From: a virus
Taxonomy: Duplodnaviria > Heunggongvirae > Uroviricota > Caudoviricetes
IMG/VR virus record: IMGVR_UViG_2529292831_000017
Location: 1-40,514 of that record
Length of the DNA: 40,514 nucleotides
Direction: 5' to 3' (one strand)
Position 1 is the first letter of the stretch. Each line of letters opens with the position of its first letter. This document shows positions 698 to 37,856 of the stretch, one piece after another. Made by a program: the position numbers and the translations under genes. The notes under the pieces were generated by a model. That model was not told where the DNA came from. It did no database searches and saw only the letters and a list, made by a program, of their open reading frames with translations.

Positions 698-1060
698 GGG
701 GCTGATTCTGGATTCGACGGGATTTGCGAAACCCAAGGTGCATGCCGAGGGGCGGTTGGCCTCGTAAAAAGCCGCAAAAAATAGTCGCAAACGACGAAAA
801 CTACGCTTTAGCAGCTTAATAACCTGCTTAGAGCCCTCTCTCCCTAGCCTCCGCTCTTAGGACGGGGATCAAGAGAGGTCAAACCCAAAAGAGATCGCGT
901 GGAAGCCCTGCCTGGGGTTGAAGCGTTAAAACTTAATCAGGCTAGTTTGTTAGTGGCGTGTCCGTCCGCAGCTGGCAAGCGAATGTAAAGACTGACTAAG
1001 CATGTAGTACCGAGGATGTAGGAATTTCGGACGCGGGTTCAACTCCCGCCAGCTCCACCA
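698..1060 (+). ncRNA. ssrA: tmRNA (SsrA), 363 nt
   Basis: Begins GGGGCTGATTCTGGATTCGACGGG, contains the tag-reading-frame region, and ends in a tRNA-like 3' domain GGTTCAACTCCCGCCAGCTCCACCA; length and sequence match E. coli ssrA. Confidence 0.93.
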
Positions 1061-1183: not shown

Positions 1184-1666
1184 ATGGAAGAACTTCACTT
1201 TGTTTACATCAATGCAAATGGTCGTATCGGTGTTCACTCAATACAGAGCATCAGTTATAGCGAAAATCATATACAGGGCATTTGTAAGAACACCGATCGA
1301 ATAAAAACCTTCCGAAAAGACCGCATTCTTAAACAGTACGATTCACCAGAACAAGCCATTCAGGAATGCGCGTCATTCCTCCCCGAAAACTACTCACATC
1401 TCACTAAGCAGTCTGGTCCGAAAAAAAATACATTCGATGTGTGCTTCACCGGATTTAAGAAAGCAGATAAAGAAAGATTGGTTGATAAGGCGAATGAACA
1501 AGGATTAACGGTAAGAACCTCTGTAACCCAAAGCCTTCAGATGCTCTGTTGCGGTTACAATGCAGGCCCATCAAAAGTATCGGCAGCCAGGATGAAAGGC
1601 ACAATCATCATAGATGAGCCTGGCTTTATACATTTTCTTGAAACGGGTGAGATCCCAGATGAATAA
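1184..1666 (+). CDS. Hypothetical 160-aa protein: N-terminal WYL-like motif (RIKTFRKDRI), C-terminal BRCT-like region
   Basis: Good SD (AAGAGG, 6-nt spacer). C-terminal half (VCFTGF...GLTVRTSVTQS...GYNAGPSKVSAARMKGTIIIDEPGFIHFL) follows the BRCT pattern seen at the C-terminus of NAD-dependent ligases. GC lower than phage backbone. Sits between attL and ogr. Confidence 0.5.
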   Translation: MEELHFVYINANGRIGVHSIQSISYSENHIQGICKNTDRIKTFRKDRILKQYDSPEQAIQECASFLPENYSHLTKQSGPKKNTFDVCFTGFKKADKERLVDKANEQGLTVRTSVTQSLQMLCCGYNAGPSKVSAARMKGTIIIDEPGFIHFLETGEIPDE

Positions 1667-1667
1667 A

Positions 1668-1694
1668 AACCTGCCGTAGCAGGTTCTCTTTCTT
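1668..1694. terminator. Bidirectional hairpin terminator between convergent 1184 ORF and ogr
   Basis: AACCTGC-CGTA-GCAGGTT perfect 7-bp stem, T-rich on the + side (CTCTTTCTT) and on the - side (TTTATTC). Confidence 0.6.
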
Positions 1695-1911
1695 AAAAAT
1701 TCATATGGCCCTGACCACCTGGCAATGGATGTGGAGGGGCTGTGGCAATCACTGCAGGTGTCACAATAAACCGGACCACTGTTTCATGGGTAACAAAAGT
1801 GCTCCCGCAGTTAATATTTTGGCACTGGCAGTAACGCTCTTTGGTGCTTTCTGTTACTTGAAAACTGCTCCTTGTGTGCGCCGCATGACCACACTTCGGA
1901 CAATTCATCAT
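1693..1911 (-). CDS. ogr: Ogr/Delta-type zinc-finger late transcription activator (72 aa from internal ATG)
   Basis: MMNCPKCGHAAH...KERYCQCQNINCGSTF matches the P2 Ogr C2-C2 zinc-finger pattern; the tracked ORF begins at an upstream GTG, the ATG at 1909-1911 gives the P2-like 72-aa length. Confidence 0.8.
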   Translation of the reverse strand: MMNCPKCGHAAHTRSSFQVTESTKERYCQCQNINCGSTFVTHETVVRFIVTPAVIATAPPHPLPGGQGHMNF

Positions 1912-12617: not shown

Positions 12618-12963
12618 TCTCTGCTCCTGTTGATACGGAAAGGGACACAGGCACACCGTTATTCCGCCGCCCGGTCAGCTCCACCACCATAGAACCGTCA
12701 AAGTTGCTGTTGATGGTGATGGAATCCAGCGTCAGCCGTGGCTCCCAGCGACTCAGCGCCACATACACTGCCGACATGACCTGCAGGCGCAATGCCGGAT
12801 TTTGTGCCTGGTCTATCAGCGCCGACAGCAGGGAACCATATTCCCGACGGGCAATGCGGCTACCCTGTGGCGTCAGCAAAATGTCCCGCACCGACTGGCG
12901 CAGATGGTCCGTGTCTGTAATAGCTTTTCCGTTGCTCTGACTCATGCCGATATACAGCGTCAT
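12604..12963 (-). CDS. W: Baseplate wedge protein W
   Basis: 119 aa, P2 gpW-like size and position. Confidence 0.8.
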   Translation of the reverse strand: MTLYIGMSQSNGKAITDTDHLRQSVRDILLTPQGSRIARREYGSLLSALIDQAQNPALRLQVMSAVYVALSRWEPRLTLDSITINSNFDGSMVVELTGRRNNGVPVSLSVSTGAENGSD

Positions 12964-13538
12964 ACCGGGCCTCCGGTTGTATCGCCGCCTTTCAGGACGC
13001 CAGTATGCTGATGCGCATCAACCACAATCCCGTTAGAACTCATCGCTCCGCCGCCCTGGATAACGCCACCATTGATCACCACTTCGCTGTTAATACGCGT
13101 GCGGTCAGCCTCCAGTACAAACTCACTGGTTTTCATGGTGATGTTGTCAGCGGCCTCAATGACCATTGATTTGATGCCCCTGACATACCAGCGCCCGGTG
13201 GCGGGTTCATATTCAAACCAGCCGCCGTCAGGATGCTCTGTCACGCAGGCATCCGCCGACGTCGACGGTGGCGCGAACTGATTCGAATAGATGGCGGGCA
13301 ACGCAAAGGCGGTTTCCAGATTTCCGCCCAGACTCAGCAGCACCACCTGCTCACCTTCCGATGGTCGCCACCATGTGCGGGCATTCCCGGCACGCAGCGT
13401 CAGCCAGCTGATCCAGTTGGTTTCAAGCTCGCCCGTTTTCACCCGGCAAAGCCAGTTTTCCCTGTCCCCTTCGGTGACTACCCCAGTGCGGATCAGGTTG
13501 GTGATAAGGCGCATGATTTCGGTTAATTGTGCGTTCAT
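12960..13538 (-). CDS. V: Baseplate spike/hub protein V
   Basis: 192 aa, first gene of the V-W-J-I-H-G operon. Confidence 0.8.
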   Translation of the reverse strand: MNAQLTEIMRLITNLIRTGVVTEGDRENWLCRVKTGELETNWISWLTLRAGNARTWWRPSEGEQVVLLSLGGNLETAFALPAIYSNQFAPPSTSADACVTEHPDGGWFEYEPATGRWYVRGIKSMVIEAADNITMKTSEFVLEADRTRINSEVVINGGVIQGGGAMSSNGIVVDAHQHTGVLKGGDTTGGPV

Positions 13539-13584
13539 TTCTAAAGTGTCTCACATTAGAATGTCCTACCATTGCGAAGAAATT

Positions 13585-13602
13585 TGTATGAATGAAGATA
13601 CA
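13585..13602. promoter_or_regulatory. TGT-N12-ACA dyad upstream of V (candidate Ogr site of PV)
   Basis: TGTATGAATGAAGATACA, resembling the FI-upstream dyad; sits in the short spacer between V and the divergent cargo gene. Confidence 0.45.
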
Positions 13603-13615
13603 AAATGGAGATTGA

Positions 13616-14467
13616 ATGTTTACTGTTGGTATTTACGGCTTTACTCTAACAAAGATAACTCACTTTTCATTCGGGACAATGTATCCAATAGAAACCAGTT
13701 TTCTTAAATTAAAAAAATATAGACAAGACAAGGAAAAATTATATCTTACTGCGCTCCTTGAACTTGACATCATAGACAAGAGCGAAACAGATAATATCAT
13801 ATTTCATCTAGAGAAAATTTTGAGTTTTATAGAACAGAGAGCAGTATTTATCAGACACCAACTAAATAATAAGACTCATAAATTTGACTTGCCCATAGAT
13901 TACCCTCTCTTTATAACTCCTAATATTAACTTATCAAGTTCAGGAGAAATCATTCTTGAAGATTGCTTTTCCAAAAACTCAAGACGCTACTTTATTGAAC
14001 TTGCTATAAATAAGATCATCATTGCTAGAGATCGACCATTTACCACAATACTTCATAAAAATGTATTGGTTTTCTCTAATCCAATAAATTATCTTGATGT
14101 ATCATATTACTTACTTTTTTCTGGCCTTGAGTCATTAGTTCGAGAACGTGAGAATGATTTTAAATCAAACATTACGCCAATAATGTATCGTTACCTCAAA
14201 AAGCATGGGTTTAATATAAATCAACAAAACAATAAACATCATGACATCTCACTTGATATTTACTGTAGCTTAAGGAACGCATTATTTCACAATGGTCAAT
14301 TCCAAACCATGCCGATGAAAAGAGGCTCTAAAACAATCAGTTTTGCACTAAAGGATTTTTACTCACAATTTAAACGATTAAACTGCCTAGTCATATTAAA
14401 AGAAGCAGAATTCAGCGATCATCATATCAACTGGAATTTTAGTGATTATAGAAACCCTTTTATATAA
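13616..14467 (+). CDS. AT-rich accessory gene between S and V: hypothetical 283-aa protein with an Rx4H (HEPN-like) motif
   Basis: Opposite strand to the late operons, GC far below backbone, SD GGAG 5 nt upstream; motif SLRNALFHNG near the C-terminus. The same S-V junction holds the low-GC orf30 in P2. Confidence 0.5.
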   Translation: MFTVGIYGFTLTKITHFSFGTMYPIETSFLKLKKYRQDKEKLYLTALLELDIIDKSETDNIIFHLEKILSFIEQRAVFIRHQLNNKTHKFDLPIDYPLFITPNINLSSSGEIILEDCFSKNSRRYFIELAINKIIIARDRPFTTILHKNVLVFSNPINYLDVSYYLLFSGLESLVRERENDFKSNITPIMYRYLKKHGFNINQQNNKHHDISLDIYCSLRNALFHNGQFQTMPMKRGSKTISFALKDFYSQFKRLNCLVILKEAEFSDHHINWNFSDYRNPFI

Positions 14468-14468
14468 C

Positions 14469-14915
14469 TCACCCTGACAACCAATGAAGTAAAATATCAT
14501 GAGTGATGGCCTCTAACTCATCGTTGCTCCCCAACAACTGCCGCTCTGCGTACCGTACCTCCGGTCCTTTGCGGCTGACGCGATCACGTAAGCCGTAGTG
14601 ATGAACACGGGCAATGCGCTGTACCTTGCCTTCAAACTGCACGCTGGCAGAGTCGGCGCTGGCGGCAGTTTTCAGGTATTTTGTGGTGCGCAGCTTTGTA
14701 AACATCTGACGTTTGATGCGCCCCTTTTTGCTGCGTGCTGTTACCCTGCGCGGCTCATAACTGCTGCCATCTGGATTGCGCTGCATCCTGATGTTCTGCT
14801 GCTGTGTCCGGCGCAGTTCCTGCGCCAGCTGGCGCATCATGCGGCTTCTTGCGGCTGGCTCCAGATTCGCCAATAATGCACTCAGCCAGTTGTCCACCTT
14901 CTGCAGTTCAGCCAC
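14469..14915 (-). CDS. S: Tail completion protein S
   Basis: 148 aa, P2 gpS-like; overlaps R. Confidence 0.8.
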   Translation of the reverse strand: MAELQKVDNWLSALLANLEPAARSRMMRQLAQELRRTQQQNIRMQRNPDGSSYEPRRVTARSKKGRIKRQMFTKLRTTKYLKTAASADSASVQFEGKVQRIARVHHYGLRDRVSRKGPEVRYAERQLLGSNDELEAITHDILLHWLSG

Positions 14916-20354: not shown

Positions 20355-20372
20355 TGTACCGACAACCACACA
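20355..20372. promoter_or_regulatory. TGT-N12-ACA dyad in the divergent O/P intergenic region (candidate Ogr site)
   Basis: TGTACCGACAACCACACA between the O and P start codons. Confidence 0.45.
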
Positions 20373-20418
20373 AACCGCAGGCGGGGAAAGCCTTCATTCA
20401 AGGCTGTAGGTTTGTTCC

Positions 20419-22185
20419 ATGAACACCACACTGACACCCGCAGATCTCGATCCCCGTCGGCAGGCCATGCTGCTGTACTTTCAGGGATACCGCGTAGCCC
20501 GCATTGCTGAAATGCTGGGCGAGAAAGTTGCAACCGTTCACAGCTGGAAAAAACGCGACAAGTGGGGTGACTATGGGCCGCTGGATCAGATGCAGCTCAC
20601 CACCGCCGCACGCTACTGCCAGCTCATTATGAAGGAGCACAAAGAAGGGAAAGATTTCAAAGAGATTGACCTGCTGGCGCGCCAGTCGGAGCGCCACGCG
20701 CGGATCGGCAAGTTTAACAATGGCGGCAACGAAGCCGACTTAAACCCTAACGTCGCCAACCGCAACAAAGGCCCGCGTCGTCAGCCGGAAAAGAACGTTT
20801 TCACCGATGAACAGATTGAGAAGCTGGAAGAAATCTTCCATTCCTCCATGTTCAACTACCAGCGCCACTGGTGGGAAGCCGGAAAAACCAACCGCATCCG
20901 CAACCTGCTGAAGTCACGCCAGATCGGCGCGACCTTTTACTTTGCCCGTGAAGCCCTGATTGACGCCCTGCTTACCGGACGTAACCAGATTTTCCTTTCC
21001 GCCAGTAAGGCACAGGCCCACGTCTTTAAACAGTACATCATCGACTTCGCCAAAGAAGTGGAGGTGGAGCTGAAAGGCGATCCGATGGTGCTTCCCAACG
21101 GGGCCACGCTTTACTTCCTCGGCACCAATGCCCGCACGGCCCAGAGTTACCACGGCAACCTGTATCTGGATGAATATTTCTGGATACCGAAATTCCAGGA
21201 GCTGCGCAAGGTGGCTTCCGGTATGGCTATTCACAAAAAATGGCGACAAACCTATTTTTCCACGCCATCCAGCCTGACACACAGTGCTTATCCGTTCTGG
21301 TCCGGTGCGCTGTTTAACCGTGGGCGCAACAAAACCGATAAGGTGGACATCGACCTGTCCCACAGCAATCTGGCCCCCGGCCTGCTGTGCGCAGACGGGC
21401 AATACCGCCAGATAGTCACCGTGGAAGATGCGGTGCGCGGCGGCTGTAACCTGTTCGACCTCGACCAGCTACGCATGGAGTACAGCCCGGACGAATACCA
21501 GAACCTGCTGATGTGCGAGTTTGTGGACGATCTCGCGTCCGTGTTTCCGCTCAGCGAGCTGCAGGCGTGCATGGTGGACAGTTGGGAAGTCTGGACCGAC
21601 TTTCATGCACTGGCGCTGCGCCCGTTTGGCTGGCGCGAAGTGTGGATCGGTTATGACCCGGCAAAAGGTACGCAAAACGGCGACAGCGCCGGATGCGTAG
21701 TGGTGGCACCGCCAGCCGTGCCGGGTGGTAAGTTCCGCATTCTTGAGCGTCACCAGTGGCGCGGGATGGACTTCCGCGCCCAGGCTGACGCCATCAAAAA
21801 ACTTACCGAACAGTACAACGTGACTTATATCGGAATCGACTCAACCGGCGTTGGTCACGGGGTTTACGAGAACGTGAAAGCGTTCTTTCCTGCCGTCCGG
21901 GAGTTTGTCTACAACCCCAACGTTAAAAACGCCCTGGTACTCAAGGCCTACGACATTATCAGCCACCGCCGTCTGGAGTTTGACGCCGGGCACACCGACA
22001 TTGCGCAGTCATTCATGGCAATCCGTCGCGCAACCACCGCCAGTGGCAACCGCCCAACCTATGAAGCCAGCCGCAGCGAAGAAGCCAGCCACGCCGATCT
22101 GGCCTGGGCAACAATGCACGCACTGTTTAACGAACCACTGCAGGGCGAGTCCGCCAATACCAGTAATATTGTGGAGATTTTTTGA
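20419..22185 (+). CDS. P: Terminase large (ATPase) subunit P
   Basis: 588 aa, P2 gpP-like length; divergent from O. Confidence 0.9.
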   Translation: MNTTLTPADLDPRRQAMLLYFQGYRVARIAEMLGEKVATVHSWKKRDKWGDYGPLDQMQLTTAARYCQLIMKEHKEGKDFKEIDLLARQSERHARIGKFNNGGNEADLNPNVANRNKGPRRQPEKNVFTDEQIEKLEEIFHSSMFNYQRHWWEAGKTNRIRNLLKSRQIGATFYFAREALIDALLTGRNQIFLSASKAQAHVFKQYIIDFAKEVEVELKGDPMVLPNGATLYFLGTNARTAQSYHGNLYLDEYFWIPKFQELRKVASGMAIHKKWRQTYFSTPSSLTHSAYPFWSGALFNRGRNKTDKVDIDLSHSNLAPGLLCADGQYRQIVTVEDAVRGGCNLFDLDQLRMEYSPDEYQNLLMCEFVDDLASVFPLSELQACMVDSWEVWTDFHALALRPFGWREVWIGYDPAKGTQNGDSAGCVVVAPPAVPGGKFRILERHQWRGMDFRAQADAIKKLTEQYNVTYIGIDSTGVGHGVYENVKAFFPAVREFVYNPNVKNALVLKAYDIISHRRLEFDAGHTDIAQSFMAIRRATTASGNRPTYEASRSEEASHADLAWATMHALFNEPLQGESANTSNIVEIF

Positions 22186-23250: not shown

Positions 23251-24933
23251 TTACAAATACCGTCTAACACGTATTTTATTAATGCTCGACTCATTTCCAA
23301 TTCTTATCAAAGCATTTCTCGCTTTTTCTCCGATGCGTTTCATTCTTTCTGAACCATTGCTATACCCACCAAACTTAAGAGCAGTAGCTATTATTGAATC
23401 ACCACCATCAAGAATGACTTTTTTAAATAAATCATAGTAGTCATCCTCTGAGGCAGCATCCAATATTTCCTCGTGCCTATCAGACCAACCATTCTGACTT
23501 GATAATTTTATTAGAACATCCTTTATAGAACCATCCAGATTTAAAGTAGTAGAATAATCTTGGATTTTTGACTTTAACTCAGCATCTTTTATAGGATGAA
23601 CATTCATGTAAATAGATTGAACATATTCCTTAAGAGCATCATTACCGTAATTAATAAATTTACTTATTAATTCACTTGCTTTAATATTTTCACCTAAATC
23701 TCTATACAGTCCGACAACACTATCCAAGTCACTTGGAGTTACATACTCTATCCCACCAACCACCGCTTGATATAGATTATCAATAACCTGATTTCGGTTA
23801 TCTTCAAATGAATTATAGAAAAGCTTCCATGCTTCAAACAGTGAACCTCGCTTACTATCACGGATAAGTTCATCATTCCTTAGACTTACTTGCCTTTGGA
23901 AATTGTTCATATCAATATATCCATGCCTTACCATGTCTATAAGGACTTCATCAAGTTCGTTTGTTTTTTTATAATCATATATAAGCAAAGTATTAAGCCA
24001 TTTTTTTTCTTTTCCATCCTCTTTTTCATCACGCATATAGATATTTCTCATATTTCTAATATACTCCAATGATGGTACATCTCCATCTGGAGTAAATGCG
24101 TAATGACTCCAACAATACAAAGTTAAGGAGTGTGCGACTTCATTTGCAATTTTTTCAAAATTAACGTTAATGCCAGGTAACAAGGCTAGCAAAAACCGCT
24201 CTATTTTTTTCAGTATCCTAATATTCTTAATACCCAGGGAAATGGAGTATTTGCTTAATAATTTATGAACATCAGAATTATTTTTATATGCTATAACTGC
24301 ACATTCTTCTGGAGTAGGATTATAGGTAATCTCTCTATCAATAACCTTTTCTTTATAAGTGGAGTAGTCATCCATACCACTTGTCCCGTTATTAAGTAAA
24401 AGAACCACCTTACAATTTTTTTGTTCTTTCAATAAAGAAACCAACCCTAAGACATCTTTCACTTCTAAATTTTTACCACGTCTTTCTAAGTCATCTATGA
24501 CTACAATAACATTAGTAATTGACATAAATGACATTGACTCAAGTGTCGTAGTGAAATTTTTCAAAAAAGGTGTATCTTTTAACACACGAGCGGTCTTTCT
24601 AGTGCAGGATTCAAGAAGCCCCTTTGCATTTTGTGTTGCTGTTTTTAAATTAGGTTTGTTTCCAATGAAATCTTTCGTAATTGTATTTTCAAAGATGGAG
24701 TATTTTAATGCGTCCAATGAATTAACACCAAAAAGAGAGACGTAACTATATCTATTAAATGCAATCTTATTTTTATTTTCCTTTAAGAAAGCATTCCAAG
24801 TATAGGTTTTCCCAATCCCCCACTCACCCTGAATAGCCATTACCTCAGGTTCTGCAGATGAAATAAAGTCTGACAACTGTTCTTTAATATAGTCTAATGA
24901 CATGTACATTCTCCGAGATAGATAGTCATCCAT
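23251..24933 (-). CDS. Accessory gene: KAP-family-like P-loop NTPase (560 aa)
   Basis: Walker A GEWGIGKT and Walker B VIVVIDDLERR (the GxWGxGK / hhhhDDLDR pattern of KAP NTPases); very AT-rich; lies between cos and Q. Confidence 0.6.
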   Translation of the reverse strand: MDDYLSRRMYMSLDYIKEQLSDFISSAEPEVMAIQGEWGIGKTYTWNAFLKENKNKIAFNRYSYVSLFGVNSLDALKYSIFENTITKDFIGNKPNLKTATQNAKGLLESCTRKTARVLKDTPFLKNFTTTLESMSFMSITNVIVVIDDLERRGKNLEVKDVLGLVSLLKEQKNCKVVLLLNNGTSGMDDYSTYKEKVIDREITYNPTPEECAVIAYKNNSDVHKLLSKYSISLGIKNIRILKKIERFLLALLPGINVNFEKIANEVAHSLTLYCWSHYAFTPDGDVPSLEYIRNMRNIYMRDEKEDGKEKKWLNTLLIYDYKKTNELDEVLIDMVRHGYIDMNNFQRQVSLRNDELIRDSKRGSLFEAWKLFYNSFEDNRNQVIDNLYQAVVGGIEYVTPSDLDSVVGLYRDLGENIKASELISKFINYGNDALKEYVQSIYMNVHPIKDAELKSKIQDYSTTLNLDGSIKDVLIKLSSQNGWSDRHEEILDAASEDDYYDLFKKVILDGGDSIIATALKFGGYSNGSERMKRIGEKARNALIRIGNESSINKIRVRRYL

Positions 24934-25149: not shown

Positions 25150-25761
25150 CTACGTAACCACAGTTAATGTGTGCATCCTGTCTCGAATTGCATCACACGT
25201 CTCATCAAAAAGCTTGGTGATGGTTGTATGGTTCAACTCCGCCTCTTTCCAATAATTTTGCCCGTCAAATTCTGGATCGCTATGCTTAAACGATATTGAC
25301 TCTGAAAGGCATTCCTTCCGGAAACGGTCCAAGATTATATAAACCTCTGGTGAGATGAACGGTTTGTTAGATTCAACACTTGTAACAAAAGTGTTAAATG
25401 CATCAAAAAAAACTTTCAACCTTCTAAATTTTCTCTCTTCAAATGGTTCGTTGGGGTCAACATGATCCAGCGCAGGCCTCAGCTTAAGCACGCTTTCTCT
25501 GGTTTCAAACATCGAATTCCAAATGAGACTATATGCTGATAACTCCTTATCAAAATACGCTTTCGTTACATAAACAGAATTGTCTAACTTAGCCTTTATT
25601 CTTTCATTAGTTGCACTCAGTTGTGATTGAAATTCAGCAATATCTTTGTTTAGCCGCGACTTATATCTTTCTAAATAAACTTTCCCGATCCAAACAAATA
25701 TGCCAGATGCAACAAAAGACACCCCACCCAACGAAGCCAGAACTTTAAAGACCAAATCCAT
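25150..25761 (-). CDS. Accessory gene: 203-aa protein with one N-terminal TM helix and a coiled-coil-rich body
   Basis: Hydrophobic N-terminus LVFKVLASLGGVSFVASGIFVWIG; GC below backbone; between the SOS operon and cos, where P2 carries tin/old. Confidence 0.5.
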   Translation of the reverse strand: MDLVFKVLASLGGVSFVASGIFVWIGKVYLERYKSRLNKDIAEFQSQLSATNERIKAKLDNSVYVTKAYFDKELSAYSLIWNSMFETRESVLKLRPALDHVDPNEPFEERKFRRLKVFFDAFNTFVTSVESNKPFISPEVYIILDRFRKECLSESISFKHSDPEFDGQNYWKEAELNHTTITKLFDETCDAIRDRMHTLTVVT

Positions 25762-35391: not shown

Positions 35392-36345
35392 ATGCAGTTA
35401 CAAAAAACCTCTAACTCCATTATAGAAATAGGAAGTGATCTGATGAATAACATCATCTATACAAACGAACAATATGAAATCGAAAATCTAAGTATAGCCC
35501 TGTATGCAATTTTCGATAAAATAAAAGAAAGGATTTCCATCGCCGAAGAATCTAACATTTACACTATCAGAGATGTTGGTCATAACTCGGAATCTCAAGT
35601 TTGCAAAAACACTTTTAATAAATTAACGCAATTTTTTGATTCAAACATTCTTTACATCCAAGACTGTGAAGTCTTAATTTCATATATAACAGAGTGCAGT
35701 TTGGAACTCTCTGTTATAGCGCAACAATTTTATGAAATACTCTGGAGCGATTTGTTAATAACCACACCAGACAAAGATTTTAAAGGGATTTTAGTAGCAA
35801 AATCGCCAAAAACAAGCTTGCTATTTTCTTTGTTAAGCATGCTATTTATAAAAATGAATAGTTTGTTTGACTACGTTACTAAAATCTCCTTTGAATTATT
35901 AAAGAGTAACTTCCCAATCTCTAAATACAAGAAATTAATATCCAAAAATAAATTATACGGCAACTATAAAGAATTAGTTTTTTCGACAACAACGGATACC
36001 ATATTTGAAAATAGCAATTTTATAAACACTGTAACATCATTACGAAATCATATAATTCACCACGGTTATATAGATGAGCACCCAAAGGTATATGTTGAAG
36101 TGGAAAATGGCATTGCATTTGGGAGATTTGTACTATTCCCCGATTTGAATGAGAGTGGAGGACTGGAAAATTGCATTAACAGAACTTTATTCTATTCAAA
36201 AGAAACAAAGATTGATGAAAAATTACCTGACTTAATTAAGGAATGCCAAATTAAAGTAATTAACTCGTTGAAGGTACTAATTAAAGATCATGAAGCATTA
36301 GAAGATTCAAGAAAGACTGGCGGCACTTTGGCGGCAGAGCATTAA
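35392..36345 (+). CDS. Accessory gene: 317-aa protein with an Rx4H (HEPN-like) motif
   Basis: About 30% GC; motif SLRNHIIHHG parallels SLRNALFHNG in the 13616 ORF; the ATG at 35443 has the better SD (AGGAAG, 7-nt spacer). Confidence 0.5.
   Translation: MQLQKTSNSIIEIGSDLMNNIIYTNEQYEIENLSIALYAIFDKIKERISIAEESNIYTIRDVGHNSESQVCKNTFNKLTQFFDSNILYIQDCEVLISYITECSLELSVIAQQFYEILWSDLLITTPDKDFKGILVAKSPKTSLLFSLLSMLFIKMNSLFDYVTKISFELLKSNFPISKYKKLISKNKLYGNYKELVFSTTTDTIFENSNFINTVTSLRNHIIHHGYIDEHPKVYVEVENGIAFGRFVLFPDLNESGGLENCINRTLFYSKETKIDEKLPDLIKECQIKVINSLKVLIKDHEALEDSRKTGGTLAAEH
36317..36345. repeat. 29-bp imperfect direct repeat, copy 2
   Basis: See copy 1; a related sequence AGTGGCGGCAAAATGGCGACAGAC also occurs near attL (1107-1130). 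Confidence 0.6.
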
Positions 36346-36659: not shown

Positions 36660-37856
36660 GTGGCACGGACAACACGCCCCCTGACCAACACCGAAGTTCT
36701 GCGCGCTAAAGCGATGGAGAAGGATCTAACGCTGCATGATGGCGATGGCCTTTTCCTAATAGTGAAAACCAGCGGGAAAAAGCTCTGGCGCTTCCGTTAT
36801 CAACGTCCAGTGACAAAACAGCGGACAATGATGGGACTAGGTGCTTTCCCCGCTCTTTCACTTGCTGACGCCCGAGGGTTAAGAGCAGATTACCTTGCCT
36901 TGTTAGCCAACGGAATTGACCCACAAATTCAGGCCGAAGTTGCAAAGGAACAGCAGCAAATCGCTCTGGACAGTATTTTTTCAACGGTTGCCGCTAACTG
37001 GTTCCAGCTCAAAAGTAAAAGCGTTACCCCTGATTACGCAAAAGACATTTGGCGTTCACTGGAGAAAGATGTATTCCCTGTCATTGGTGAGATCCCCGTT
37101 CAGCAAATCAAAGCACGAACTTTGGTTGAAGCCCTTGAGCCAATCAAAGCTCGTGGGGCGCTTGAGACTGTACGTCGACTTGTGCAGCGCATCAACGAGA
37201 TAATGATTTATGCCGTAAACACTGGTCTGATTGATGCCAATCCAGCATCAGGTATTGGAATGGCCTTTGAGAAGCCCAAAAAACAAAACATGCCGACGCT
37301 GCGGCCAGAAGAATTGCCGAAGCTGATGCGTTCTTTGGTTATGTCTAATCTGTCTGTTCCGACGCGTTGTCTTATTGAGTGGCAACTTCTCACGCTTGTG
37401 CGCCCTTCTGAAGCATCCGGCACTCGATGGGCAGAAATCGATCTCGATGCCAAGCTCTGGACGATCCCAGCCGAACGGATGAAGGCCAAGCGTGAACATA
37501 TTGTTCCTCTATCTCCTCAGGCATTAGAGATTCTGGAAGTAATGAGGCCAATCAGTGCTCACCGTGAGCATGTTTTTCCAAGCAGAAATGATCCAAAGCA
37601 AGCGATGAATAGTCAGACTGCAAATGCCGCGTTAAAACGAATTGGATATGGAGGTAAATTAGTAGCTCATGGTTTGCGCTCAATAGCGAGTACTGCTATG
37701 AATGAAGCTGGTTTTAATTCAGATGTGATTGAAGCAGCACTCGCTCATAGTGATAAAAATGAAGTGCGAAAAGCTTATAATCGCGCGACATATATCAATG
37801 CTAGAAAAGAAATTATGAATTGGTGGGGAAATTGCATCAATAAAAGTAAGATCTAA
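36660..37856 (+). CDS. P4-type tyrosine integrase (CP4-57 IntA-like)
   Basis: 398 aa, GTG start with SD AAGGAG; N-terminal arm-binding-type domain plus catalytic region (HGLRSIAST...LAHSD...VRKAYNRATY); P4-family integrases typically target ssrA and tRNA genes. Confidence 0.9.
   Translation: MARTTRPLTNTEVLRAKAMEKDLTLHDGDGLFLIVKTSGKKLWRFRYQRPVTKQRTMMGLGAFPALSLADARGLRADYLALLANGIDPQIQAEVAKEQQQIALDSIFSTVAANWFQLKSKSVTPDYAKDIWRSLEKDVFPVIGEIPVQQIKARTLVEALEPIKARGALETVRRLVQRINEIMIYAVNTGLIDANPASGIGMAFEKPKKQNMPTLRPEELPKLMRSLVMSNLSVPTRCLIEWQLLTLVRPSEASGTRWAEIDLDAKLWTIPAERMKAKREHIVPLSPQALEILEVMRPISAHREHVFPSRNDPKQAMNSQTANAALKRIGYGGKLVAHGLRSIASTAMNEAGFNSDVIEAALAHSDKNEVRKAYNRATYINARKEIMNWWGNCINKSKI

Follow-up and report, generated by a model that had tools for sequence, protein, structure and literature searches.

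The gene analyzed here, referred to as the cargo gene, lies in the IMG/VR virus record IMGVR_UViG_2529292831_000017, a stretch of 40,514 nucleotides (nt; hereafter the window) that constitutes a P2-like prophage of E. coli with its late genes on the minus strand. It encodes a protein of 283 amino acids (aa) and is positioned between the late genes V and S. The cargo gene is a genuine, conserved gene of foreign base composition, and its product very likely adopts a HEPN fold with an intact catalytic signature. We favor, with moderate confidence, a model in which the prophage gained the gene by horizontal transfer, as a "moron" at the S/V (orf30) position, and in which its product is a self-contained, two-domain HEPN ribonuclease (RNase) acting as a one-protein abortive-infection or phage-exclusion module.

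The cargo gene occupies the S/V slot

The genes and signals at the junction are as follows.

12960..13538, minus strand: V (baseplate spike), first gene of the PV operon (Pfam Phage_base_V and Apex)
13607-13610, plus strand: ribosome-binding site GGAG, 5 nt before the cargo ATG (from the sequence)
13616..14467, plus strand: cargo gene, 283 aa, ATG start (WP_001726279.1, "hypothetical protein"; PHROG 4373)
14469..14915, minus strand: S (tail completion; Pfam Phage_tail_S)

The cargo open reading frame (ORF) is antisense between V and S, and its guanine-plus-cytosine (GC) content is 0.308 compared with 0.572 for V and 0.557 for S; for the full 930-nt S-V interval the value is 0.31. In the nearest phages of the phage collection, the V and S flanks are 85-95% identical and the insert is absent. 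The ORF, its GC content and an empty 68-nt junction in relatives agree with the first-pass annotation of this DNA, in which a lone AT-rich 283-aa ORF on the opposite strand was described between S and V. The gene (852 nt) is 100% identical in strain 504237 (NZ_CP025862).

The stop codons of the cargo gene and S are convergent and only 1 nt apart, and no terminator-like hairpin was found in 13300-14800, including between these two genes. An Rfam scan detected no noncoding RNA family in the cargo region, the one match being a transfer-messenger RNA (tmRNA) at 698-1060. In some homologous prophages, the cargo ORF even extends into the 3′ end of the convergent S gene, with 38 nt shared at locus L042 (2354-2391) and 8 nt at locus L044 (2333-2340); both loci carry 3′-overlapping antisense genes and leave no room for a terminator.

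The orf30 locus of P2-like phages is a recognized site of horizontally acquired genes (PMC3091744), and the P2 record shows the same slot, as the first-pass annotation had proposed. The likeness to P2 Orf30 (NP_046770) comprises the S/V slot, the antisense orientation, the low GC content, a non-essential character and a start approximately 14 nt past the pV activator site. Orf30 differs in length (261 aa) and in having an annotated terminator between S and orf30, whereas the stop codons are 1 nt apart here. Homology between the two proteins was considered and rejected (BLASTP E 0.66; no P2 match in a tblastn search of the phage collection), and position alone is shared. Judged from its hydrophobic ends, P2 Orf30 looks membrane-associated.

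The cargo protein has a predicted HEPN fold and an invariant active-site signature

Two domains and two motifs can be delineated in the cargo protein.

13616..13975, plus strand: N-terminal alpha/beta domain (b-b-a-b-a-b, approximately residues 1-120), presumed sensor or regulatory domain
14084..14410, plus strand: HEPN-fold core (approximately residues 157-265) of the predicted model
14129..14143, plus strand: Ex3R motif, E172-S-L-V-R176, in helix 160-179, invariant in 27 aligned sequences
14273..14290, plus strand: Rx4H motif, R220-N-A-L-F-H225, all six residues invariant, predicted RNase active site

An AlphaFold2 model based on the family alignment has a predicted local distance difference test score (pLDDT) of 91.7 and a predicted template-modeling score (pTM) of 0.91. 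In this model, two helices link the N-terminal domain to the HEPN half, the core of which is composed of helices 160-179 (with Ex3R), 186-196 and 213-226 (with Rx4H), a beta-hairpin insert (234-241) and helix 245-263. This corresponds to the four-helix up-down bundle of two alpha-hairpins, often with inserts, that defines the HEPN fold.

The hallmarks of HEPN domains are an Rx4-6H motif, a polar residue (N, D or H) directly after the arginine, and an upstream acidic residue, typically within Ex3[KR] (Anantharaman et al., PMC3710099). The cargo protein carries all three, and each is invariant in the family: in the alignment of 27 sequences, which extends down to 28% identity, the invariant positions are Y164, L166, F168, S169, E172, R176 and R220-N-A-L-F-H225. 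By a rough estimate, the chance of finding a bare Rx4H in a protein of this size is about one in three, and the string alone is weak evidence; it carries weight because it is invariant across the family. The first-pass annotation had called the protein HEPN-like on account of the string SLRNALFHNG, which is present at residues 218-227. The confident AlphaFold model and the invariance of Rx4H and Ex3R back this assignment.

That annotation had also proposed profile and structure searches, and their outcome is divided. The HEPN fold is seen in the AlphaFold model, but Pfam, NCBIfam and PADLOC all gave no match for the cargo protein, the Pfam HEPN families were matched by none of the 27 aligned members even at E<=10, and a Foldseek search of the PDB with the cargo model returned nothing significant (none below E 0.6). 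These negative results weigh against the HEPN assignment and the function built upon it. Collectively, the HEPN fold and the active-site signature are well supported, while membership of a named HEPN family is not. The PHROGs database gives a full-length match to family 4373, "unknown function". Sequence-profile matches in the PDB to the stretch "LRNALFHNG" were to consensus-TPR proteins only and were rejected as spurious.

The N-terminal domain is always paired with the HEPN half and is without a confident structural or sequence relative. The idea that it represents a fused MNT-like antitoxin was rejected, as the GS/DxD motif is not conserved. Residues 5-9, GIYGF (13628-13642), correspond to a family string "GIYG[YF]" in which Y7 is nearly invariant and G8 invariant, and which is similar to the first half of the motif of GIY-YIG nucleases. 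The other catalytic residues of such nucleases are not conserved and a structural match was not found; the resemblance is probably a coincidence.

Could the protein have a HEPN fold and yet not be an abortive-infection nuclease? It might instead be a binding or regulatory protein, or an anti- or counter-defense factor that, for example, binds nucleotides or RNA. Some HEPN domains are indeed non-catalytic substrate binders (PMC3710099), defense hidden Markov models leave the cargo protein unmatched, and some homologs are found among housekeeping genes. However, non-catalytic HEPN domains have typically lost Rx4-6H (PMC3710099), whereas here Rx4H, the asparagine after the arginine and Ex3R are invariant, which points to selection for catalysis. 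The cargo gene also shares the single-gene mobility of known defense cargo (see below). We therefore regard this explanation as unlikely.

The family is a self-sufficient single-gene module

The family is small: a word-indexed search identified 29 clusters, and an exhaustive profile search of 1.84 billion proteins yielded 191 cluster representatives (50% identity). Most family members are full-length proteins of approximately 280 aa. The enterobacterial homologs looked up (in E. coli, Salmonella, Klebsiella and Proteus; 32-100% identity) are all located between V and S in antisense orientation. The P2-like phages that carry them fall into three or more genera, with Felsduovirus RE2010, Gegevirus ST437-OXA245phi4.1 and the phage described here, the closest relative of which is a Wadgaonvirus. 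The gene is rare: of 5,426 E. coli genomes that are complete, 6 contain it.

When 29 loci of GTDB species representatives were considered, a P2 context was seen in the Proteus locus only. In Vibrio tubiashii, the homolog (39% identity) forms a gene cassette of its own, flanked by attC-like repeats in a chromosomal integron array next to a tyrosine recombinase. Other homologs lie beside integrases or are lone genes. In this respect the family resembles the integron-cassette HEPN proteins (PDB 3JRT family; PMC3710099) and the defense cassettes of sedentary chromosomal integrons (bioRxiv 10.1101/2024.07.02.601686), both of which have a counterpart in the Vibrio tubiashii cassette. Within two ORFs on each side of the gene at the 28 non-P2 loci, GajA, ZorD-like, DpdE, SIR2 and Mrr-type proteins were found in addition to housekeeping genes. 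No recurrent partner gene was detected across these 28 loci, and no family occurs in more than two of them. Given its occurrence as a single gene and the variety of its loci, the family is a self-sufficient single-gene module without a conserved partner that moves between mobile-element hotspots.

The Vibrio array itself (locus L004, 2200-12870; CP187514.1) contains at least 13 attC-like repeats of approximately 125 nt (TAACAAA...GCGTT...GTTA) that separate single small ORFs. It lies downstream of the tyrosine recombinase, and nearby cassettes include those for AAA_28 and NTP_transf_6 proteins.

The absence of a partner bears on the possibility that the cargo gene is a selfish toxin or addiction module, in which an RNase checked by an antisense or cis-encoded RNA, such as the late-operon read-through transcript or the leader of the gene, would stabilize the cargo or the prophage with no anti-phage role. 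HEPN toxins are common in toxin-antitoxin systems, to which the HepT/MNT structural matches relate, and AbiF-type HEPN proteins pair with a noncoding RNA (match to 8vz6). The convergence of the cargo gene with S, abutting or overlapping it with no terminator, is in line with such an antisense RNA. Nevertheless, neither an MNT gene nor any other protein partner is present in any context examined; the neighbors are V and S, attC sites or unrelated genes. The Vibrio cassette and lone chromosomal copies are intact although they lack the P2 antisense context, the region has no Rfam match, and the upstream leader is only approximately 46-77 nt long and is occupied by PV. We regard an addiction module as unlikely, too. 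The cargo protein further differs from HEPN/MNT (HepT/MntA) toxins in its extra N-terminal domain and its beta-hairpin insert, and structural alignments to these toxins (5YEP, 7AE2, 8XDJ, HI0074) show a sequence identity of 5-10%.

A proposed one-protein abortive-infection module

In the model that we favor, an RNase module for abortive infection or phage exclusion, the protein would dimerize via its HEPN domains, with a composite RNase site arising in the dimer. In the lysogen, the protein would be kept inactive by its N-terminal alpha/beta domain until a signal provided by an infecting phage activates it. The active protein might then cut transfer RNA (tRNA) or other RNA and halt the infected cell, as shown for HepS and ApeA. 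Two points reduce our confidence in this model. Several homologs have housekeeping neighbors, and the defense neighbors given above are raw occurrences. Moreover, we infer, rather than observe, the RNase activity, toxicity, defense role, trigger, target and expression of the cargo protein.

The closest functional parallel is HepS (STM14_3211) of the Salmonella prophage Gifsy-1, a partner-less "HEPN solo" abortive-infection protein with a canonical Rx4H (PMC13043305). Expression of HepS is constitutive, but the protein rests in an inactive state until a phage tail-tip protein turns it on, whereupon it cleaves the anticodon loops of tRNAs (PMC13043305). Our proposal for the cargo protein follows this mechanism. 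Like HepS, the cargo gene is a prophage accessory gene in a cargo slot that encodes a single HEPN protein with Rx4H and has no partner or inhibitor gene. The two belong to different families: the motif is R100-H105 in HepS and R220-H225 here, and the cargo protein has an extra N-terminal domain of approximately 150 aa. In addition, HepS is carried by a lambdoid phage in another slot, in contrast to the P2-like host described here.

ApeA (Gao et al. 2020) is a single-protein defense with a C-terminal HEPN RNase and a sensing N-terminal region without known homology (bioRxiv 10.64898/2026.01.26.701840). The nearest solved structural neighbors common to ApeA and the cargo protein are HepT toxins (5YEP, 7AE8/7AE2), and both have an insert between core helices H3 and H4. 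ApeA is approximately 580 aa long and has three domains, compared with 283 aa and two domains here. UniRef labels a Salmonella homolog with 81% identity "Apea-like HEPN domain-containing". Membership of the ApeA family was rejected, since PADLOC, which presumably includes an ApeA model, matches 0 families, the Pfam HEPN families give none at E<=10, and size and domain count differ. Hence, given the lack of a match to an ApeA or HEPN model and the differing architecture, the cargo protein is not a demonstrable ApeA despite the UniRef label.

The dyad upstream of the cargo gene is a fixed part of PV

The late regulatory elements relevant to the cargo gene are listed below.

1693..1911, minus strand: Ogr-family late activator, 72 aa, CX2CX22CX4C (motif from PMC3931495), presumed to bind the dyad
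13585..13602, no strand assigned: dyad TGT-N12-ACA, TGTATGAATGAAGATACA, putative Ogr-type activator site of PV; a core phage element, not a cargo function

The TGT-N12-ACA consensus and the four Ogr-dependent late promoters of P2 have been described (PMC3931495). Across the window as a whole, the bare pattern shows no enrichment (5 matches compared with 10.7 expected). However, 4 of the 5 matches are at P2-like late-promoter regions: one precedes FI (8893), one precedes V (13585), and two lie in the O/P interval (20355 and 20413). As in an Ogr-dependent late promoter, a dyad is located upstream of the late operon and the genome encodes an Ogr-type zinc-finger protein. The two O/P dyads (20355-20372 and 20413-20430) lie 58 nt apart in the divergent intergenic region. 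The second of them overlaps the first listed in-frame terminase start (20419), which suggests that the P start is probably further downstream.

The first-pass annotation had placed a dyad at 13585-13602, where it is found, and had put it 14 nt from the cargo ATG, while the distance is 13 nt. It had also described the start region of the gene as overlapping the dyad. The coding region does not overlap it; only a 5′ untranslated region or promoter could. The closeness of the two had been taken as a hint of a possible regulatory link. However, the spacing between the V ATG and the dyad is 46 nt in the window and 48 nt in both a Klebsiella phage and P2, and a spacing of 46-48 nt is held in ten cargo loci (the window, L041, L001, L042, L043, L044, L008, L045, L030 and L002). 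The same spacing is present without cargo: in the empty relative Escherichia phage 500465-1, the 68-nt S-V interval runs from the V ATG through 46 nt, TGTATCAGTGCTGATACA and 4 nt to the S stop codon. The P2 GenBank record likewise annotates the pV activator site with the orf30 start 14 nt beyond it. On the cargo side the spacing is less uniform: 12-13 nt separate the dyad and the cargo ATG in E. coli and Salmonella, compared with 28 nt in the Klebsiella locus and 31 nt in the Proteus locus.

Since the spacing to V is kept in both cargo-bearing and empty relatives, the sequences argue that the dyad is a fixed part of PV, with or without cargo, and that its closeness to the cargo ATG is inherited geometry. 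Dispensable DNA is found solely in the stretch from the dyad to the stop codon of S, and a cargo gene must therefore begin directly behind the dyad.

These data also bear on whether the cargo gene is an Ogr-coupled late gene, in which case V and the cargo gene would both be expressed from the dyad, with the protein serving the phage's own lytic cycle, e.g., as a host shut-off RNase. The symmetric dyad directly upstream of the cargo ATG and the same arrangement at P2 orf30 speak for such coupling, and coupled activation by Ogr was one of the two outcomes considered in the first-pass annotation. For a full-length ORF it is geometrically excluded, because the 13 nt between dyad and ATG, including the ribosome-binding site, hold no promoter. 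A mirror-image promoter at the PV distance from the dyad would start inside the ORF, and use of a downstream start codon is ruled out because the N-terminus (M1, Y7 and G8) is conserved. Moreover, the dyad is in the same place in cargo-less relatives, the cargo gene is antisense to the late transcription units, and homologs exist outside any P2 context. An Ogr-coupled late gene is accordingly very improbable.

How might the cargo gene be expressed?

The second outcome considered in the first-pass annotation, mutually exclusive expression from PV and of the cargo gene, is plausible. With no room behind the dyad, a cargo promoter would have to be placed within the PV core or on its far side, and a conserved candidate on the cargo strand overlaps the PV core.

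13534..13562, plus strand: candidate sigma-70 promoter, TTCATT (13534-13539)-17 nt-TAGAAT (13557-13562)

All eight E. coli and Salmonella cargo loci, which represent approximately five or six independent lineages, have TTCAT(T/C)-N17-TA[G/A/C/T][A/T]AT at one fixed position on the cargo strand, and nothing comparable is present in the empty relative. After the V ATG, the first 25 nt are conserved among the cargo loci and the next 21 nt vary freely. Several features count against this candidate. Its -35 element is poor (3/6), and overlaps and is constrained by the V start codon. It was not called by a stricter promoter scan, and it has no clear counterpart in the Klebsiella and Proteus loci. 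On the V strand, a -10-like TAATGT (13558-13553) overlaps it, and the conserved block may simply be the PV core traveling with the cargo. The block at 13539-13563 is thus ambiguous and might serve as the promoter of the cargo gene, as the -10 region of PV or in both roles.

Cargo-bearing and cargo-less phages differ completely in the 46 nt that separate the V start from the dyad (13539-13584, compared with 440-485 of the cargo-less locus L011), these being AT-rich with a conserved TCTCACATTAGAATG block in cargo phages and GC-rich in cargo-less ones. The V proteins of cargo-bearing and cargo-less phages are approximately 99% identical over the part present in L011 (146 aa). Because these 46 nt differ despite a near-identical V, the cargo module seems to bring its own version of the PV core promoter. 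In this scenario, recombination would have its end-points at the start codon of V and the stop codon of S.

On the basis of these features, a regulatory model can be outlined. In the lysogen, a weak constitutive promoter (TTCATT-17-TAGAAT) inside the PV core would transcribe the cargo gene, and, with a promoter in that position, the mRNA leader would carry the dyad. During the phage's own late phase, Ogr and RNA polymerase at PV would switch cargo transcription off. The upstream late (O-type) operon ends at S, and read-through from it might also silence the gene; convergent transcription into the cargo gene, with no intervening terminator, would add to the silencing. In a more far-reaching version, the cargo gene would represent a new family of self-contained HEPN sensor-effectors, with the N-terminal alpha/beta domain detecting an infection cue, that the late program silences through PV promoter occlusion, a roadblock at the leader dyad and convergent read-through; we regard this full combination as doubtful. 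If true, it would mean that an abortive-infection toxin is carried under transcription-level control that spares the phage's own lytic cycle, in contrast to Gifsy-1, which escapes HepS through a trigger variant.

What is known and what is new

The S/V acquisition site, the defense hotspots of P2 and solo HEPN defenses are already known, and the role of P2 hotspots as defense reservoirs is established (PMC9122126; PMC13586616). New here are the cargo family itself and its assignment to HEPN, along with the N-terminal domain and the hypothesis on its regulation. Compact immune modules made of one gene for a solo HEPN nuclease are now coming to light, with 2026 work explaining both HepS and ApeA. 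A short, cassette-sized and un-annotated family with a new N-terminal domain offers an inexpensive way to look for a new infection sensor. The S/V (orf30) slot would hold defense-like cargo, beside the better-studied old/tin and Z/fun hotspots, and the antisense placement in the late region offers a testable model of how a prophage avoids self-intoxication. If the protein is inert, the finding shrinks to an ordinary moron at a known moron site.

Other cargo loci and the prophage setting

The prophage holds at least three low-GC cargo loci, i.e., the S/V cargo gene, a KAP NTPase and an unrelated HEPN-like protein near int.

23251-24933, minus strand: KAP-family P-loop NTPase, 559 aa, GC 0.33 (PADLOC candidate PDC-S49, E 2e-25)
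35392..36345, plus strand: second HEPN-like cargo candidate, 317-aa ORF in the int-att region; product probably from 35443, 300 aa

The first-pass annotation had suggested two HEPN-like cargo proteins in this prophage, with the string SLRNHIIHHG in the second. The string is present, while the called product starts at M18 and has 300 aa rather than 317. A second HEPN-like protein is plausible, but it is less well supported than the first: its model is moderate (pLDDT 72) and only four homologs of the ORF were found, in which S-x-R-[ND]-H-I-I-H-H-G and D-x3-K are invariant. Kinship between the two proteins was considered, and none is detectable beyond the motif. In Klebsiella 186/P2-like prophages, a homolog of the 317-aa ORF is located alone, directly after int, i.e., in the int-att hotspot (PMC13586616).

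The KAP NTPase gene occupies the gpA-Q (old/tin) hotspot and adjoins a 202-aa ORF of unknown function at 25150-25761 (minus strand). This locus is a third candidate defense locus of the same prophage.

At the other end of the prophage, the tmRNA gene (ssrA, 698-1060, plus strand; Rfam) adjoins it and flanks its ogr end. A 160-aa ORF with a weak BRCT match lies between ssrA and ogr (1184-1666, plus strand). A second integrase gene (36660-37856, plus strand) is located beyond the int end, and together with ssrA it looks like part of tandem elements at the ssrA site.

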